Source: a virus. From it: 15,640 nt of DNA. Below, piece by piece: positions 3,128-12,825 of the stretch. Position numbers and translations under genes: made by a program. The stretch lies in the UHGV virus genome UHGV-0333408; one strand, written 5' to 3'. The stretch's first letter is position 1, and every line of letters starts with the position of its first letter. Under the pieces are notes generated by a model. The model did not search any database. It was not told where the DNA came from and saw nothing but the letters and a program-made list of their open reading frames with translations.

Positions 3128-4342
3128 CTATGATAGTTCAGCGTAAAGCTCTATCAGCTCAGTAATGAATGCTCCGAGCGTTATTAATTCTTCTCTAACT
3201 GCTTCTGGGTATTTTTTATGTAAAGTTGATGGTACAACGAGTCTGACACCCGCATCTTTCATTTCTCGGTATTGTGCTGAAGAAACACCTTCTTGCAGTG
3301 TAAATAAATGTACCTGATGGATTTTATCTGCTTCATTCAGTATCTGACGCCAGCGATCTTTGCAGGTGGTCTTTACTGCCAGCATACGTAAGTTTTCTAC
3401 AGGAAATTCAACGTTATGATATGCCTCTGCTGAAGGAAACAGGAAATCTGGTTTTTTATTACCTTCAGTAACTGCCTGAGTGGAGAAATGCCGTAGTCCG
3501 TGCTCGATAAAAAGCTTCTCTAGGTGAAGTTCAAGTGATTTGCCTGCCCTTGATTTACGTCGATTACTGACAGAGTTGGCTAATGCAATAAACTCATCTA
3601 CAGAATCGAATCCTTTCTTAATAATATCAAGAACATGTAATTCCTCGACGAGTAGAAAAATATCATACTCGACACGCCGACGGTCAATCAGTTGCTCATC
3701 TGGATCCTTGGAGTTTTTAGCATAATGGCCAGCAGCATATTGAATAATTTCGTTTCCAGAAGGAAAACGCTTCTTCCAGTCTTCAGGAATAACATATTTA
3801 TGATTTACTGGAGTTTGCTGAAGAGACAATCCGCCCAAAATTTGTCCGGCAGGGCCGGAAATTAGGGTTCCAGGTATGATTTCGCCAATAGCAGACTCGA
3901 TGATATCCTCTTCATCGGGATTGACGCAGACCCATATATCTACCTCGGAACAGTCAGTGTTCTGTTCGTTTAACCTGAAAGCAAGAATTGTGAGGGCTCC
4001 TGTATTTTCAGGGTTCTGTAATGGACTTCCTCTCCCCCAGCGCGTAATTCTTTTTTCGTTTCGGGTCTTACCAAAATAACGGTTGTTGTAATAAATTGCG
4101 CGTGCTTGGGTATCAGGGCAATCATGGGATGATACATGCGCAGTAAGGAAGACTGAAGGGTTCAGTTCGCGAGTATGATTGATAGATGGAAAAAGCTTTT
4201 CAACGATATTTGAGGGGATATAAAGTCCGACCTGATGGCCACCTGTTGCGCCTGTGTCGTTTGCAGAAAGGCGTTTGATGTAGATAAAGTAATTCCCGCT
4301 TGCGATATCAAGCAGCCAGTTATGAAAAACCGACATATACAT
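3128..4342 (-). CDS. ecoRIIR: Type IIE restriction endonuclease, EcoRII-like, 404 aa
   Basis: 404-codon ORF convergent with the Dcm-like gene. Numbering from the first ATG puts Asp299 in KPDFLF, Lys324 in LAVKTT and Glu337 in ILNEADK, which are the catalytic residues I recall being published for EcoRII. The length equals the recalled 404 aa. A better Shine-Dalgarno (AAGGGA) serves the ATG two codons downstream at 4336, so the start is ambiguous by two codons. Confidence 0.88.
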   Translation of the reverse strand: MYMSVFHNWLLDIASGNYFIYIKRLSANDTGATGGHQVGLYIPSNIVEKLFPSINHTRELNPSVFLTAHVSSHDCPDTQARAIYYNNRYFGKTRNEKRITRWGRGSPLQNPENTGALTILAFRLNEQNTDCSEVDIWVCVNPDEEDIIESAIGEIIPGTLISGPAGQILGGLSLQQTPVNHKYVIPEDWKKRFPSGNEIIQYAAGHYAKNSKDPDEQLIDRRRVEYDIFLLVEELHVLDIIKKGFDSVDEFIALANSVSNRRKSRAGKSLELHLEKLFIEHGLRHFSTQAVTEGNKKPDFLFPSAEAYHNVEFPVENLRMLAVKTTCKDRWRQILNEADKIHQVHLFTLQEGVSSAQYREMKDAGVRLVVPSTLHKKYPEAVREELITLGAFITELIELYAELS

Positions 4343-8997: not shown

Positions 8998-9360
8998 TTA
9001 ATGACCTGCTGCGCGGAGTTTTCCGTCAGGTTCACCGGCAAGAGTCAGTAATTGTCCCTGGTCTTCCTGCAGAATAGTCAGGCGACCACCGCGATTGACA
9101 TACATCGGCGTTTCGGTGGTGTCTTCTTCGGAAATTTTCCCGCGGTTAGTCGGGCGAACATATGAGAGTTTGTGTTTGATTTTCACACGGTTCTCATCAA
9201 ATGGTTCGATTTCCAGGTTGAGTGAGACCTTACCTTTGGTTTTCGTGTTCATCACACCGGAAGCGACTTCACTGAGAACTGCGCCGATTTTGGTTTCAAA
9301 TACGCCGCCGTCCAGCTCCCCGATAAATGCCTGCACATCAGTACTGCGTTCGCTAGCCAT
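8998..9360 (-). CDS. Hypothetical prophage protein (121 aa), possibly YfdP-like
   Basis: The start is placed at the ATG at 9360, which has AGGAG 7 nt upstream. The longer 182-aa ORF would start in a Cys/Arg-rich stretch with no RBS. Confidence 0.55.
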   Translation of the reverse strand: MASERSTDVQAFIGELDGGVFETKIGAVLSEVASGVMNTKTKGKVSLNLEIEPFDENRVKIKHKLSYVRPTNRGKISEEDTTETPMYVNRGGRLTILQEDQGQLLTLAGEPDGKLRAAGH

Positions 9361-9988
9361 TTTGCTGCTCCTCATCATATCGACCCTGCAAGGCCGGTTG
9401 GTTTCTCCACAAAACAGAGAAGAACACCTGCGGTGGCAGCCGCCCGGATGGATTGGGTTATGAGCCCGTCGTCCGGTGATGCTCTTCTCTGTTTTGTAAA
9501 AAGAGCGGTACCAGCCGGAAGCAAGTGTACAAACTGGTACCGCCAAAGCAGTGGCTGTTGTGGTGACCGGTGCTGATCTCCGGCTTGCGGTTATTTCAGA
9601 CTCTCACGGGCGTTTAATTGCCCCGCCGAACAGCTCTTTTCCGCAATAGCTGCAATGTCTTTCGCGCATCAGCCTGCGCATTCACCACAACGCTGAGAGC
9701 ACTTAGCCAGTTACGGCACCACACTTTGTCGCGGTTCCATAAATGCCCTCATCGTTGCACCCTGGTCTCTTCCCAGGCGTCAAACCGAATCGCCACGCTG
9801 GTTAGGCGTCTTATCAGCATCATCATTGACTTGCACATTCCGGCTACCTGGTTTGTTTGCCCGAGCAAGGAGTGGATTGTCCCCTTTAACGTCACCAGAC
9901 CGCTAACGACGCATGTGCCATACGCCGTGTTACAACCAAATTTTGTTAGTACCTTGTTTGTTGGTCTGGAAAGAAAGATAAAATGAAG

Positions 9989-10027
9989 TTGCGCATTATG
10001 CAAGTGTTTTTATTGCGAGATATGCAA
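9989..10027. promoter_or_regulatory. OL-like operator pair (two TTGC-N7-GCAA dyads) and probable leftward early promoter
   Basis: TTGCGCATTATGCAA (9989-10003) and TTGCGAGATATGCAA (10013-10027) share a dyad pattern with the OR site at 10796-10810. They lie just beyond the cI terminator, where lambda carries OL/pL. Confidence 0.5.
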
Positions 10028-10039
10028 TTTTGTGGGTAA

Positions 10040-10062
10040 TGAAAAGCCACCTTCGGGTGGCT
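10040..10062 (-). terminator. Rho-independent terminator downstream of the cI-like gene
   Basis: On the minus strand: GCCACC-cgaa-GGTGGC followed by TTTTCATT, about 20 nt after the cI stop. Confidence 0.7.
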
Positions 10063-10082
10063 AATTGATGAGGAGGTAAGGG

Positions 10083-10775
10083 TTAATTGTGTCGCTTAAG
10101 GGTTTGTGACTGGCTGATTAAGACCTTTCCAAAGACCATAAACCGGTGTTCATTTTCGCTGGTAATTCCCCATTCACGGTAAATCTGGTTATCAGAAATC
10201 ACCAGTAGTTTGTCAGGTATCATTTGCAGTCGTTTGACATAAATTTTATCATCAAAACCAAATACATAGATACCATCTCCATCAAACTGATTGATACTGA
10301 CATCAACGAAGATGAGATCTCCTGGCTCAATGGTTGGACACATACTGTCCCCACGAACGTTGATAACTTTGATGTGATTGGCTGGTCGTCCGCCGAACAT
10401 TGATACAGCATTATCAGTTCTGTATTCGATGGCATGAATCACATCAATGACATCACCGCCCTGGATAAGGCCATTTCCCGCACTGGCACTGACATCCAGC
10501 ATTTCAATACGGAATACATCCTTCACCTGCGCAACATCCTCACTAATACTGTTTTTACATACAGTATTACTTTTGAAGTCTGAGGTAAAGAGATCAGCAA
10601 TATCAACACCTAAGCTCCTGGCAATATTACTCAGGGCTTGTTCAGTGAATTGTTTCTGCTTACCTGTTTCCAGGCGTGAGATATTCGCCGCATCCACTCC
10701 TATTGCTTCAGCGAGATCGGCGATTTTCATGTTCTTCGCCTGGCGAAGTTGTCTGACTCGATTTCCTATGTTCAT
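10083..10775 (-). CDS. cI-like prophage repressor (HTH_XRE plus S24 LexA-type autopeptidase), 230 aa
   Basis: N-terminal HTH (KIADLAEAIGVDAANISRLETGK). C-terminal S24 peptidase with the Ser nucleophile in RGDSMCPTI and Lys in YVKRL. A candidate Ala-Gly autocleavage site lies in SASAGNG. The gene is divergent from a cro-like gene. Confidence 0.9.
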   Translation of the reverse strand: MNIGNRVRQLRQAKNMKIADLAEAIGVDAANISRLETGKQKQFTEQALSNIARSLGVDIADLFTSDFKSNTVCKNSISEDVAQVKDVFRIEMLDVSASAGNGLIQGGDVIDVIHAIEYRTDNAVSMFGGRPANHIKVINVRGDSMCPTIEPGDLIFVDVSINQFDGDGIYVFGFDDKIYVKRLQMIPDKLLVISDNQIYREWGITSENEHRFMVFGKVLISQSQTLKRHN

Positions 10776-11133: not shown

Positions 11134-11677
11134 GCATCACTGGAAAGTGGAAAAACAACCTGACTGGTACGTGAAAGCTGTCAGAAAAACTATCGCGGCA
11201 TTGCCAGGTGGTTACGCTGAAGCTGCTGATTGGCTGGATGTAACAGAGAACGCATTATTTAATCGCCTTCGTGCCGATGGTGATCAGTTTTTTCCGTTGG
11301 GATGGGCAATGGTTTTACAGCGCGCGGCTGGCACTCACTACATTGCGGATGCTGTCGCACAGTCTGCTGGTGGGGTGTTCGTATCGCTTCCTGAAATTGA
11401 GGAAGTAGAGAACGCCGATATAAACCAGCGCCTGCTGGAAGTCATCGAACAGATCGGGAGTTACTCAAAGCAGATTCGTTCGGCAATCGAAGATGGGGTC
11501 GTGGAGCCACACGAGCAGACAGCAATTAATGATGAGTTGTATCTGTCAATTTCGAAGCTCCAGGAGCATGCAGCACTGGTCTACAAAATCTTTTGCGCTC
11601 CAGAAAAGAGTGACGCCCGCGAGTGTGCAGCTCCGGGCGTCGTGGCGTTTTGTGTCTGTGGAGAAACTAACGCATGA
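11126..11677 (+). CDS. CII-like regulator (CP76 / YdaT-like family), 183 aa
   Basis: GTG start with AGGAGG 7 nt upstream, overlapping the cro stop. Lies immediately downstream of cro, as CII and YdaT homologues do. The family call is from recalled resemblance and position, not a confirmed match. Confidence 0.55.
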   Translation: MGKHHWKVEKQPDWYVKAVRKTIAALPGGYAEAADWLDVTENALFNRLRADGDQFFPLGWAMVLQRAAGTHYIADAVAQSAGGVFVSLPEIEEVENADINQRLLEVIEQIGSYSKQIRSAIEDGVVEPHEQTAINDELYLSISKLQEHAALVYKIFCAPEKSDARECAAPGVVAFCVCGETNA

Positions 11678-12825
11678 ACAGTTTAACGGCAAATAACCGT
11701 TTGTCGCAACAACCGGTGGTCAGCGTCGCTGAACACCGGTTGTTATGGCATGAATGCAGATTACCAAATCACCTGGCTGTAAGTAACCACAGAGAACTTT
11801 ACCTGACTGTGGGGGGCGAGTTGTGCAGGAACTTAACCGCTGGTTTCGTGACGGAAGAGGACTTTATGTTCATGTTATTCGTTGGGAGCCAGAAACACAG
11901 CGCGTTATCTATCTTCGCAAAGACTACCCGCATGAGTGCTTTAGTCCTTTGTGGAAATTCAGGCGTGATTTTGTTGAGTGTGAAGGACCACCAGCACATT
12001 GATTCTGCCATTCCGGGACGTTACACTGTTCAGGCACCTTATAAAACGGGTGCCGGGCGTGGAAACCCGGAATTCACCAAAGCGCACAACCGCGCTCTTG
12101 CGGTTTTTTTGTGTCATGAGCAGCATTACGCCCAAATTATGGTGGGGCGTGCAGGGCCAACTTCGGTTGGGCCGGGTTCTTTGGTGACCGGTATTTCCAC
12201 CCCTGTACGTCTCACCACCAATAAGGTCGTGGAAAGCCTTGGTGGTGAGTTATTAAAAATCACCAAAGAGGCTGCCATCATGGCTACGATCCCAACCCTC
12301 ACTCAACCTGAAATTGCCATCGTTGATGGTCAGGCTGTTACTTCATCCTTGGCTGTTGCCAACTTCTTCTCCAAACGTCATGACGATGTACTGAAAAAGA
12401 TCCGCACGCTTGAATGCTCAGCATCATTCACTGCCCGCAATTTTTCGGTGAGTGATTACACTGATTGCACAGGTCGCAAACTTCCTTGCTACCAAATCAC
12501 ACGCGACGGTTTTGCGTTTCTTGCTATGGGTTTCACGGGTAAACGTGCTGCCCAGTTCAAGGAGGCATACATCAATGCCTTTAACCAGATGGAGAAACAG
12601 CTTTCAAAGCCCTCTGTACCGAGCGACGTTGCACATAACGCCAGCGTTCTCTGTTCCTACATTTCATCAATTCATCAGGTCTGGCTGCAGCAGCTTTATC
12701 CTATGTTGGCAAAAGCCGAATCTCCGCTGGCTGTTAGCTTGTATGACTATATTAATGATGCTTCGGCACTGGCCTGCCTCATAAATTTGTCGCTGAACCC
12801 TTCAGAGGTATGGGGGCGCAAATGA
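11674..12825 (+). CDS. Rha-domain phage regulatory protein (383 aa as read; N-terminal ~200 aa of uncertain coding status)
   Basis: The C-terminal ~180 aa (from the ATG at 12280, which has AAGAGG upstream) reads as a Rha / ORF6N-type domain (PTLTQPEIAIVDGQAVTSSLAVANFFSKRHDDVLKKIR ... ITRDGFAFLAMGFTGKRAAQFKEAYINAF). The N-terminal 200 aa has atypical composition, and an alternative-frame ORF exists at 11823-12002. Confidence 0.6.
   Translation: MNSLTANNRLSQQPVVSVAEHRLLWHECRLPNHLAVSNHRELYLTVGGELCRNLTAGFVTEEDFMFMLFVGSQKHSALSIFAKTTRMSALVLCGNSGVILLSVKDHQHIDSAIPGRYTVQAPYKTGAGRGNPEFTKAHNRALAVFLCHEQHYAQIMVGRAGPTSVGPGSLVTGISTPVRLTTNKVVESLGGELLKITKEAAIMATIPTLTQPEIAIVDGQAVTSSLAVANFFSKRHDDVLKKIRTLECSASFTARNFSVSDYTDCTGRKLPCYQITRDGFAFLAMGFTGKRAAQFKEAYINAFNQMEKQLSKPSVPSDVAHNASVLCSYISSIHQVWLQQLYPMLAKAESPLAVSLYDYINDASALACLINLSLNPSEVWGRK

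Follow-up and report, generated by a model that had tools for sequence, protein, structure and literature searches.

The untranslated leftward early leader of a phage genome consists of five RNA modules shared with unrelated phages

In the phage genome UHGV-0333408, 610 untranslated bases separate the leftward early promoter (pL) from the first early-left gene, and the list of open reading frames (ORFs) contains no N-like antiterminator gene, as a reading made from the sequence alone (here, the sequence-only reading) had remarked. What such a leader encodes is the question raised by this locus. The sequence-only reading had offered a terminator array, a cis-acting antiterminator RNA like HK022 put, a small RNA, or a decayed gene. 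Analysis of the window, the whole stretch of 15,640 nt, reveals a leader composed of five RNA modules, each of which is also present in unrelated phages, and the repeats that had drawn attention to the region are helices of conserved modular RNAs that adjoin tRNA genes in many unrelated phages. We propose, at a probability of roughly one half, that the pL leader represents a stable-RNA cassette, built of modules like those which phages carry in and around their tRNA clusters, rather than a protein-gene remnant or an element of the put type.

On the leftward transcript, with a start near 9968, module B comes first, followed by S, A, T, and H (Table 1). The hexamers of the candidate pL (-35 TTGCAT at 10003-9998; -10 TATCTT at 9980-9975) were placed by eye and were not listed by a promoter scan; SfV has TTGACA-17-ATAATG at the equivalent site. 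A cI-like gene (10083-10775) ends in a terminator hairpin at 10062-10045. The first early-left gene (8998-9360) is a homologue of yfdP, on the basis of the ORF list and of RefSeq and GenBank, both of which annotate identical DNA as yfdP.

Table 1. Positions of the promoter region, RNA modules, and first start codon in the window
Feature	Position	Strand	Description and basis
OL/pL	9975..10027	-	operator-like repeats TTGCGCATTATGCAA (9989-10003) and TTGCGAGATATGCAA (10013-10027)
Module B, conserved non-coding RNA of ~185 nt	9757..9941	-	variable central insert; homology and paired 3' hairpins
Module S, stem-loop	9692..9755	-	12-bp stem UGAGGGCAUUUA (9751-9740) / UAAGUGCUCUCA (9705-9694); swappable interior
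Module A, cloverleaf tRNA-like RNA, 131-nt span	9559..9689	-	covariance model R1, covariation
A P1, 7 bp	9689-9683 / 9565-9559	-	abuts P4
A linker AAU	9682-9680	-	between P1 and P2
A P2, 5 bp	9679-9664	-	GCGCA-GGCUGA-UGCGC
A variable P3 domain	9663-9585	-	variable across family
A P4, 5 bp	9584-9566	-	GCCGG-AGAUCAGCA-CCGGU; abuts P1
Module T, intrinsic-terminator-like hairpin	9498..9544	-	GGCGGUACCAG...CUGGUACCGC, 13 pairs with G-U; then UCUUUUU (9504-9498)
Module H, three-way junction including the 15-bp repeat	9402..9502	-	fold and compensatory changes
H outer stem	9497-9475 / 9428-9409	-	extendable over U-tract to 9502/9402
H arm Ha	9476-9470 / 9450-9444	-	compensatory variants
Ha cap ACGGGCUCAUAACCCAAUC	9451..9469	-	contains CGGGCUCAUAACCC
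H arm Hb	9443-9430	-	compensatory variants
Shine-Dalgarno GAGGAG (9373-9368) and ATG (9360)	9360..9373	-	start of first early-left gene

Two inverted repeats had been described in the leader. The longer one does have a perfect 15-bp core, at 9409-9423 and 9483-9497, but its second arm had been placed one base off, at 9484-9498; its full arms are 25 nt long (9409-9433 and 9473-9497) with 84% complementarity, and the nested GCTCTT/AAGAGC pair appears in the inverted-repeat listing as reported. The other repeat is also present, but is of 10 bp (9505-9514 and 9534-9543) and not 9 bp. In 200 dinucleotide shuffles of 9361-9988, perfect inverted repeats reached 11 bp at most, compared with the 15 bp observed; a 10-bp repeat on its own turns up in about 6% of shuffles, so that the case for the T hairpin is one of conservation and not of chance statistics. 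The earlier description of the region as non-coding and structured on the leftward transcript is supported. The whole leader has a folding z-score of -4.2, and the MFE fold of that transcript, the check that had been suggested, independently recovers S, A (P1, P2, and P4), T, and H. Separate z-scores are -8.0 for the long hairpin, -4.6 for the terminator hairpin, -3.1 for S, -1.2 for module A, and +0.1 for the 3' part of B.

Module A contains neither of these repeats and is the most conserved element of the leader. The covariance model R1 finds it as the sole copy in the window (93.4 bits, E=3e-24). Across the family, 97.8% of cells are paired and double changes occur at 15 of the 22 pairs, a result equaled by none of 500 shuffles. 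When P1 was not used for selection, exactly seven P1 positions paired at 92-99% (8.08 pairs, versus 5.66 with permuted partners), and dozens of different P1 sequences are seen; compensatory variants of P2 occur in the set anchored on P4 alone. Because the sequences were collected by exact 20-mers, the conservation of P2 and P4 is partly a matter of ascertainment. The geometry is that of a tRNA: P1 is stacked directly on P4 to give 12 bp (142 of 143 copies have no nucleotide between the two), P2 occupies the place of the D arm, and a dispensable variable domain stands in the place of the anticodon arm. The loops themselves are neither T-loop nor D-loop sequences. In 93-95 of 95 sequences those of P2 and P4 could pair with each other (GCUGA with UCAGC); since they never vary, they offer no covariation test, and a kissing contact between them is unproven. 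The unpaired nucleotides are highly conserved across proteobacterial classes, and module A, at least, is under strong purifying selection.

The A family has members in more than 200 viral contigs and in bacteria of at least 120 species, and the exact P2 20-mer is present in genomes of alpha-, beta-, gamma-, and deltaproteobacteria. Relatives of the modules are co-oriented with tRNA genes in P1, in phiV10, in the late leaders of Klebsiella lambdoid phages, and in T1-, N4-, and Vi01-like phages. Phage P1 has three to four A copies within its tRNA-to-ban region, a genuine tRNA-Arg sits in the position of A in phiV10, and 18 of the 19 tRNAs near A copies are co-oriented with them. One copy (L118) has a full tRNA nested in P3, another (L194) is a minimal form of 64 nt without any P3 stem, and one contig (L111) has the order tRNA-Asn, tRNA-Arg, H, A. 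The sequences flanking A fit pre-tRNA-like substrates, as far as base composition can tell: U occupies position -1 in 52% of copies (background, 21%), CC positions +2/+3 in 28 of 128 copies (9.7 expected), and G falls to 10.6% over +1 to +9, compared with 27%. Only 11 of 131 copies end in NCCA.

The covariance-model search of known RNA families proposed earlier, run with Rfam at the gathering score and at E<=10, gave no relevant match on the leader and 12 related loci. ARAGORN calls no tRNA gene in the window, and Rfam tRNA has no match at either cutoff in 9250-10100. Self-cleaving ribozymes (hammerhead, twister, pistol, hatchet, and HDV-like) have no Rfam match in the leader, the only hammerhead seen being a P3 insert of one A relative (L019, 28 bits). 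C4 antisense RNA (RF01695) does not match the leader either; its sole copy in the window is at 12135-12222 on the plus strand. IsrJ (RF01393) reached a sub-threshold 26 bits (gathering score, 37) in one relative, over the 3' half and terminator only, and homology to A was rejected: by R1 the Gifsy-1 isrJ carries no A element, and just a spacer and terminator are in common. Membership of B in the A family was likewise rejected by the A covariance model search. Module A belongs to no family of Rfam 15, and no published description of it was found in literature searched by sequence and by topic; Fremin et al. (2023) have 10,006 candidate structured RNAs without names, and A may be one of these. 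It is a well-supported RNA family with deep covariation; its members occur in hundreds of phages and in prophages whose hosts span several proteobacterial classes and at least 120 species.

Module T has the form of an intrinsic (Rho-independent) terminator with a G+C-rich hairpin; a U-run comes directly after it on the minus strand, as the sequence-only reading had observed, and termination itself is predicted. The fold is of -21 kcal/mol, and a consensus terminator scan missed it because the loop, at 13-19 nt, is above the 8-nt limit. It is the only terminator-like site found in the leader, which leaves no array of terminators. A stable hairpin and T-run are found immediately upstream of H in 102 of 125 distinct H contexts, and the stem at this position changes by compensation in relatives, at least eight different stem sequences being known (e.g., GUCGGCGUC/GACGCCGAC in Salmonella F1055). 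Complementarity of part of P3 (AAAAGAGCUGU) to the T 3' arm and U-tract is probably due to chance, since phage P1 carries the same P3 without such a terminator after it.

Module H (-51 kcal/mol) folds as a three-way junction that bears an initiator-tRNA-like anticodon loop, and the 15-bp repeat forms its outer stem. H occurs in at least 120 IMG/VR contigs. Its outer stem has 25 consecutive pairs (G-U included) around the perfect core, more than the near-perfect duplex of ~20 bp by which a putative RNase III site is recognized. The stem is maintained by compensation (AGAGAAG/CUUCUCU to AGAAAAG/CUUUUCU), as are Ha (CCGGACG/CAUCCGG, CCGGGCG/CACCCGG, CCUGAUG/CAUCAGG, and CCAGGCG/CACCUGG) and Hb; the conservation of base pairing that was to be looked for in relatives is thus present in A, T, and H. 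The stretch CGGGCUCAUAACCC in the Ha cap is identical at 14 of 14 nt to the anticodon arm of E. coli tRNA-fMet. The 77-nt tRNA used for this comparison, which we take to be the initiator tRNA, is annotated as tRNA-Met and occurs at 100% identity in all 5426 E. coli genomes, a median of four times in each; three G-C pairs are the hallmark of the initiator tRNA anticodon stem. In Klebsiella lambdoid phages, a short-stem H directly follows tRNA-Arg/Asn. Module A is detectable at only about 15 of 100 T-H loci, a count made with default search filters, which weak variants may escape.

Module B shares 80% identity with the trnI-ban spacer of phage P1 and 82% with phiV10 DNA upstream of tRNA-Arg; an exact 22-mer of it is present in at least 120 IMG/VR contigs, and a same-strand tRNA lies at a fixed distance in 51 of 117 copies. 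Its two 3' hairpins hold their pairing via double changes (e.g., GCCUGG/CCAGGG to CCGG/CCGG to CCUCG/CGAGG); the rest is invariant, so that the structure of B there is unproven. The stem of module S has compensatory variants (e.g., GGGUAUU/AGUACCC in P1-like DNA) and elsewhere wraps different interiors, including tRNA T-arm-like fragments (Stx2a_1447, O157 strain 293, and F1055). Its 3' strand sits ahead of 17 of 129 A copies and of the phiV10 tRNA-Arg, against a background of 0.3%. The modules look derived from tRNA genes.

If the leader is a cassette of stable RNAs, loss of the repressor would cause pL to yield mainly an RNA of ~465 nt with its end at T. Module A, and perhaps B, would be excised by the tRNA-processing machinery and accumulate as stable small RNAs, RNase P cutting on the 5' side of P1 and RNase E or exonucleases acting on the 3' side. 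The C4 and P4 CI RNAs of phages arise in this way, and the small RNA suggested earlier agrees with this insofar as the leader holds small-RNA-like units. T would throttle entry into the early-left operon. Read-through transcripts would fold H, in whose duplex of 25-30 bp the U-tract is absorbed. RNase III is likely to cleave this duplex, and a cut there would part the yfdP mRNA from the cassette and might set yfdP translation. The most plausible role for the released tRNA mimics is to engage host proteins that recognize the shape of tRNA. Some points tell against the cassette reading: what would be a strong terminator stands before all early-left genes in a phage with no N gene, so that read-through needs explaining, the z-score of A is unremarkable, and the 3' part of B folds no better than shuffles. 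The absence of a tRNA call for A by Rfam or ARAGORN, its non-canonical loops, its rare NCCA ends, the invariant loop pairs, the 20-mer seeding of the A set, and the placement of pL by eye weigh on the same side.

Other explanations must be weighed against this one. In HK022, put acts in cis on RNA polymerase and is blocked by mutations in the zinc-binding domain of rpoC. Processive antitermination in cis could likewise be the work of A or B, put-like in action yet unrelated to put: the nascent RNA would bind the transcribing polymerase and carry it past T and later terminators into the early-left operon, in place of N. This is consistent with a terminator-like site ahead of every early-left gene where no N-like gene is found, with the position of A 14 nt upstream of the T hairpin, and with conserved unpaired nucleotides of the sort expected for a universal partner such as RNA polymerase; moreover, A members often head operons (before RecT, yfdP, holin, and small terminase genes), 23 of 140 have a terminator within 90 nt, and a weaker copy lies upstream of tciA in P1. 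We nevertheless judge it rather unlikely. The HK022 put-like RNA of the sequence-only reading finds no sequence similarity to putL here; A can lie antisense to its neighbors (Klebsiella phage 6991), follow tRNAs directly, contain a nested tRNA, or be repeated several times in one operon, and it is also found downstream of Q-controlled late promoters, where antitermination already exists; and most T-H loci have no detectable A, subject to the filters mentioned above. The same scarcity of A at T-H loci weighs on the very improbable idea that A is a ligand-sensing riboswitch or other cis-regulator, with T as the expression platform for yfdP and the early-left operon. Conserved junction and loop nucleotides around a variable peripheral domain would suit a riboswitch, as would the terminator, or ribosome-binding site and start codon, that often follows A by 20-120 nt. 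However, T and the 3' strand of P1 do not overlap, about half of the A copies lack both a terminator and a gene start in their vicinity, and some lie antisense to their neighbors. No downstream gene is shared, those that follow encoding RecT, YfdP, holins, small terminase, and small basic proteins, and A therefore lacks the single gene family or pathway by which a riboswitch is recognized.

Two further readings concern what the modules are for and where they came from. The tRNA mimics could be decoys for anti-defence or host takeover, the H anticodon loop and the tRNA-shaped body of A being offered to enzymes of the host or of rival elements that bind or cut tRNA, such as VapC-type toxins or enzymes attacking acceptor ends; this concerns function and is compatible with the biogenesis described above. 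VapC-type toxins cleave tRNA-fMet in the anticodon loop, and phage tRNA genes are thought to counter tRNA-targeting defences. The 14-nt match of H to the tRNA-fMet anticodon arm, the resemblance of the 12-bp stack of A to the acceptor/T stack with elbow-like loops, the occurrence of both families in virulent and temperate phages of many hosts, and their place among phage tRNA genes argue for decoys, whereas the variable P3 is not anticodon-like, H retains just three of the five anticodon-stem pairs, the H of the window is buried in an mRNA leader and is not a released CCA-ended molecule, and the literature search turned up no description of such decoys. On balance we regard this as unlikely. 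Alternatively, the leader could be the inert fossil of a tRNA cluster, its modules kept only by lambdoid block exchange and functionless apart from spacing. Obvious tRNA 3'-half fragments inside the S of relatives, the failure of ARAGORN to call a tRNA in the window, module joints that coincide with BLAST breakpoints, as in a mosaic, and a B so nearly invariant that selection on its structure is unproven all favor a fossil; it is made improbable by the deep covariation of A, with its many P1 sequences in phages of distant hosts, by compensatory changes that preserve the T and H helices in E. coli, Salmonella, and Klebsiella phages with different downstream genes, and by the integrity of every A and H helix in the window. 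Decay of a protein gene, or an unrecognized one (ORFs of 122, 84, and 47-49 amino acids), is scarcely credible, although GenBank records hypothetical proteins at the leader (mEp460_036 and mEp460_037; phiSTEC1575 genes 14-16). No ORF of the region matches Pfam, and the 122-aa plus-strand ORF runs into stops in every frame in the P1-lineage copies of module B DNA, in keeping with the earlier verdict that no ORF here is credible; RefSeq annotates no gene across the leader, and homologous pieces differ by indels of arbitrary size, and it is as RNA helices that they are conserved. Of the decayed gene there survives only the looser sense in which the modules resemble descendants of tRNA genes.

The cassette reading has a wider bearing, as many lambdoid prophages have no N gene, among them Stx2a-, Stx2c-, and Stx2k-converting phages, SfV/SfII, cdtI, and mEp460, and in its place they carry a conserved structured-RNA cassette followed by a predicted terminator. 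Through H, the anticodon loop of the initiator tRNA is reproduced at the start of early or late operons. Together, A and H make it testable why phages keep extra RNAs beside their tRNA genes (P1, mEp460, and SfV being tractable), and the modules flag spurious ORF annotations in several reference genomes. A bolder proposal, which we regard as unlikely, is that A and H each represent the first members of a hitherto undescribed family of phage tRNA mimics and that they engage host machinery reading the shape of tRNA. H would then decoy or sense enzymes of the initiator anticodon loop, such as VapC-type toxins, and A would titrate or redirect a conserved tRNA-binding factor; if so, the repressor-controlled early promoter of Shiga-toxin-type prophages, and of P1, would fire tRNA decoys before any protein.

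Several known systems resemble parts of this leader. HK022 put is a non-coding RNA of ~70 nt with two stem-loops that starts at +1 of pL (PMC9378689). Like it, the modules lie just downstream of an N-less lambdoid early promoter with terminators after them; unlike it, A is built as a four-way junction and can also be situated far from promoters or beside tRNAs, and the best match of putL in the window is 12 nt long and outside the leader. A two-hairpin element just after pL in SfV, SfII, and F1055 was considered as well and has no counterpart in the window. The C4 RNA of P1/P7 and the P4 CI RNA are, like the modules, small structured phage RNAs within longer immunity or early transcripts, and are released by RNase P because their closing helix imitates the tRNA acceptor stem; C4 differs from A in its 17-bp outer stem enclosing two target-pairing hairpins, and has no sequence match to the leader. 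The tRNA-like domain of tmRNA, and YrlA, a type of RNA that also occurs in phages, combine an acceptor/T module with a large foreign domain in the place of the anticodon arm, as A does, but keep the canonical T-loop and D-loop and are detectable with Rfam, whereas A has loops of its own (GGCUGA and AGAUCAGCA) and lacks a neighboring partner gene comparable to smpB or rsr.

H recalls the RNase III hairpin of the lambda N leader and the sib hairpin as a long duplex on the pL transcript just upstream of the first early-left ribosome-binding site; it has no sequence relation to either, and is distinguished by its three-way junction, its tRNA-fMet-like loop, and the terminator usually ahead of it. 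ROOL, GOLLD, and the stable "species 1 and 2" RNAs of T4 are also structured non-coding RNAs that phages encode beside tRNA genes; ROOL and GOLLD are of 500-800 nt and in Rfam, and nothing in the leader matches them. Another parallel is with phage tRNA genes and clusters. A departs from a tRNA in lacking an anticodon arm (P3 being variable or absent) and a GTTCRANYC T-loop, with a P4 loop of 9 nt, and H in lacking a D arm, the H of the window having a 25-bp outer stem and no CCA. Yet A resembles tRNA in its closing helix of 7 bp stacked on one of 5 bp, in its linker of 2-3 nt, and in a hairpin placed like the D arm; H has a CAU anticodon-like loop and in Klebsiella phages ends in NCCA, and the modules occupy the same slots, on the same strand, as the P1 trnA/trnT/trnI genes, the phiV10 tRNA-Arg, and the tRNAs between Q and the lysis genes.

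The window covers the immunity and early region of a lambdoid prophage of the SfV/mEp460 type. Across the leader region studied, phage mEp460 is 99% identical to it, and Stx2k-, Stx2a- and Stx2c-converting phages and cdtI are 97-99% identical. The placement of pL (a consensus promoter occupies the equivalent position in SfV) and the start of yfdP delimit an untranslated leader from about 9968 to 9361, transcribed leftward. This leader is shown here to be a co-oriented series of conserved RNA modules (B, S, A, T and H, 5' to 3'), which elsewhere are found beside tRNA genes or in place of them.

Features of the pL leader and its surroundings (window positions)
Feature	Position	Strand	Description
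cI-like repressor gene	10083-10775	minus	ends in terminator hairpin 10062-10045
Operator-like repeats	9989-10003 and 10013-10027		two, 15 bp
Candidate pL	-35 10003-9998; -10 9980-9975	minus	TTGCAT, TATCTT; placed by eye
Module B	9941-9757	minus	
Module S	9755-9692	minus	12-bp stem, interior exchanged among phages
Module A	9689-9559	minus	architecture common to the homologous loci read on the tRNA strand
Parts of A, 5' to 3'			closing helix P1; linker AAU; P2; variable P3; P4
Hairpin P2 of A			GCGCA-GGCUGA-UGCGC
Hairpin P4 of A			GCCGG-AGAUCAGCA-CCGGC; abuts 3' strand of closing helix P1
Module T			13-pair hairpin, then UCUUUUU; z -4.6
Module H			three-way junction of long outer stem, Ha and Hb; z -8.0
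Arm Ha of H			CCGGACG/CAUCCGG, cap ACGGGCUCAUAACCCAAUC
Homologous piece	9764-9941		matches phage P1 trnI-ban interval
Homologous piece	9685-9928		matches phiV10 beside tRNA-Arg
Homologous piece	9556-9704		phage-P1-like plasmids, just 3' of tRNA-Asn and tRNA-Thr; 96% identity
yfdP homologue	8998-9360		first leftward gene; yfdQ next

The sequence-only reading had described the region as non-coding and rich in hairpins. No leader ORF matches Pfam, and all frames of the 122-aa plus-strand ORF, already judged not credible, are interrupted in phage-P1-lineage homologues. Both inverted repeats exist, with corrected limits: the longer one (9409-9433/9473-9497) has the perfect 15-bp core described, exceeding the longest in any of 200 dinucleotide shuffles (maximum 11), but its second arm had been placed one base off; the shorter, followed as stated by UCUUUUU on the minus strand, is 10 bp rather than 9 (9505-9514/9534-9543). 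The RNA folding and base-pairing checks proposed there gave a z of -4.2 for the whole leader and compensatory changes in the stems of T and H relatives.

When phage genomes were searched with the leader by sensitive BLAST, no single block of homology emerged; instead there were separate pieces, each of them non-coding DNA adjoining tRNA genes in unrelated phages; in nearly all cases the tRNAs lie on the strand equivalent to minus in the window. A roughly 40-nt core, at about 92% identity, recurs in T1-like, N4-like and Vi01-like phages and in phages of Klebsiella, Erwinia and Edwardsiella, as well as in one lambdoid prophage, where Q and the holin gene flank it. On one contig, tRNA-Asn, tRNA-Arg, H and A are consecutive.

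In exact-word scans of IMG/VR, the P2 word of module A was found in at least 120 contigs and the P4 word, separately, in at least 120. In a set not chosen on the closing helix P1, exactly seven of its positions pair (92-99%) and the three beyond pair in only 26-62%; the mean number of pairs is 8.08, against 5.66 ± 0.14 with partners permuted. The P4-anchored set shows compensatory variants of P2 (GAGCA/UGCUC, GCGUA/UACGC, GCGAA/UUCGC, GCACA/UGUGC, GCCCG/CGGGC and GCAAA/UUUGC). An alignment of 95 sequences has 97.8% of cells paired and double changes in 15 of 22 pairs, values attained by none of 500 shuffles; since this alignment was itself selected on pairing, the case rests on the tests free of such selection. 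The strand is identified by G-U pairs. The loop of P2 (GCUGA) is complementary to that of P4 (UCAGC); both are invariant and so give no covariation signal for this putative loop-loop contact. P3 ranges from 12 nt (stemless, L194) to about 190 nt and evidently accommodates whole functional RNAs. Related locus L118 (7021-7200) has a complete tRNA within P3 (Rfam tRNA, 40 bits), and in L019 (~3700-3780) the insert is hammerhead-like (HH9, 28 bits, under the gathering score).

By a covariance model from this alignment, the window has a single copy (93.4 bits, E = 3e-24) and the tRNA-to-ban region of phage P1 three or four, and SfV and SfII carry a weak variant. Phage P1 (AF234172) has two further copies upstream of tciA, scoring 65.8 bits (2779-2876) and 29.1 bits (2496-2615), both on the locus's minus strand; the stronger overlaps the annotated ORFs upl and plp on the opposite strand. 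These ORFs may be spurious, and a single RNA-rich transcription unit may span phage P1 DNA between tRNA-Asn and ban. At least 120 species carry the P2 20-mer in their genomes, most of them alpha-, beta- or gamma-proteobacteria and a few belonging to other groups. Exact matches outside the Proteobacteria are in MAGs labelled Flavobacterium, Coriobacteriia and Phycisphaerales (L452, L459, L494), and could be binning contaminants or reflect a truly wider host range. No Rfam 15 family matches module A, and its core sequences were not found in the literature searched by sequence.

The architecture of A parallels that of tRNA: its seven pairs stacked directly on five equal the 12-bp acceptor/T-arm, its linker and P2 correspond in position to nucleotides 8-9 and the D arm, with P3 standing in for the anticodon arm. 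In phiV10, B and S are followed by a true tRNA-Arg exactly where A begins in the window (AGCGUU|GUGGCAU-UA-GCUC... versus AGCGUU|GUGGUGA-AU-GCGCA...). There are 19 tRNAs less than 1.5 kb from an A copy, and 18 of them share its orientation. The flanks resemble pre-tRNA contexts: 52% of copies have U at -1 (background 21%), 28 of 128 have CC at +2/+3 (9.7 expected), and G is depleted to 10.6% from +1 to +9. A as a true tRNA was rejected: no tRNA detector calls it, and only 11 of 131 copies have an NCCA 3' end. The spacer and terminator (CAAACAAAUUCAAGCCUCGCCAUCGUGCGGGG…) of IsrJ, a Salmonella sRNA (Gifsy-1, L546 1501-1575) that lies downstream of Q between an antirepressor-like gene and tRNA-Arg, nearly match those after A in L072 and L018; A itself is absent from the IsrJ locus.

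Module B has three lineages, one found after trnI in phage-P1-like elements, another before tRNA-Arg in phages like phiV10, and a third in pL leaders. Its two 3' hairpins covary and the remainder is too invariant for judging; for its 3' part, folding is no stronger than in shuffled sequences. Of 129 A copies, 17 are preceded by the 3' strand of S (background 0.3%), and the interior of S holds tRNA T-arm fragments in some relatives. In Stx2a_1447 (L010), O157 FDAARGOS_293 (L011) and F1055 (L224), the stem contains two tRNA 3'-half-like pieces, …CTGGTTCAATTCCAGACAGTCCCA… and …GGTCCGTTCGATTCGGACACC…, not called by ARAGORN and absent from the window's S.

Module H is a separate family, found in at least 120 IMG/VR contigs; its outer stem, Ha and Hb all show compensatory changes, those in Ha being modest (5.93 pairs versus 5.48 permuted, permuted maximum 5.79). 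Its fold is a three-way junction and not a simple hairpin. The Ha cap includes CGGGCUCAUAACCC, a 14-nt identity to the anticodon stem-loop of the initiator tRNA, of which all 5426 E. coli genomes have copies (median 4). Of 125 distinct contexts of H, 102 have a hairpin and T-run directly 5' of it, the terminator stems being of at least eight kinds, and in 11 H directly follows a tRNA 3' end. Salmonella F1055 retains T and H ahead of another first gene. A short-stem H, with an outer stem of about 7 bp and then ACCA or GCCA, occurs between Q and the lysis genes of Klebsiella lambdoid phages. Examples (phages GZ7 and Chronis, L225/L226 ~1250-1170; IMG/VR L238, L240, L266, L272 and others) lie directly 3' of tRNA-Arg or tRNA-Asn, lack a D arm and have a CAU anticodon-like loop; this form may represent an atypical tRNA-like gene without a D arm, one that goes unreported by every tRNA finder. 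Pairing in the outer stem of H can continue across the U-tract of T, to which the 5' arm of H is complementary. P3 of A (AAAAGAGCUGU, 9630-9640) is complementary at 10 of 11 positions to the 3' arm and U-tract of T (9499-9509), probably by chance, because this P3 also occurs in phage P1, where no such terminator follows.

We propose that pL transcripts would mostly end at T, and that A, perhaps with B, would be cut out by tRNA-processing enzymes, as are phage C4 and CI RNAs. RNA reading through T, in a phage that has no N, would fold H, a likely RNase III site, parting the cassette from the yfdP mRNA. Acting as decoys would be an attractive role for the putative tRNA mimics. The suggestion of a put-like antiterminator RNA, after HK022, is weakened: the leader has no similarity to put, A is found stand-alone, antisense, tRNA-adjacent and in multiple copies, and T-H mostly occurs without detectable A. 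That the leader is a fossil is contradicted by the covariation.

Elsewhere, SfV (L223 ~2490-2420), F1055 (L224 ~2640-2570) and SfII (L012) carry directly after pL a conserved two-hairpin element of about 70 nt (AACAGGCAGGACGCCCACGAAGUAGCCGCC-UGGGGCAUAUGAAGUCCAGG-AUGAUUCG), absent from the window's phage, whose second stem shows a compensatory change (CCUGG/CCAGG to CCGGU/ACCGG). It is a candidate put-like RNA, placed like HK022 putL. On the window's plus strand, IsrK (12034-12110, 67.9 bits) and C4 antisense RNA (12135-12222, 83.6 bits), both Rfam families, lie back to back within a 383-aa ORF (11674-12825) that relatives label Rha, antirepressor or peptidase. This stretch looks like an immI-type c4-icd-ant module, as in phage P1, located in the pR operon, so the 5' part of the ORF is probably non-coding.

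Tested against sequence- or model-defined families, the leader belonged to none and shared only generic terminator and long-duplex features. We rate its modules as tRNA-like phage RNAs, a comparison made with named families rather than the unnamed candidates of large catalogues. Nearest in working principle are the tRNA clusters of phages, together with the C4 and CI RNAs, which RNase P processes; nearest in shape, the tRNA-like domains of tmRNA and YrlA; and nearest in position, put and the RNase III hairpin of the lambda N leader.
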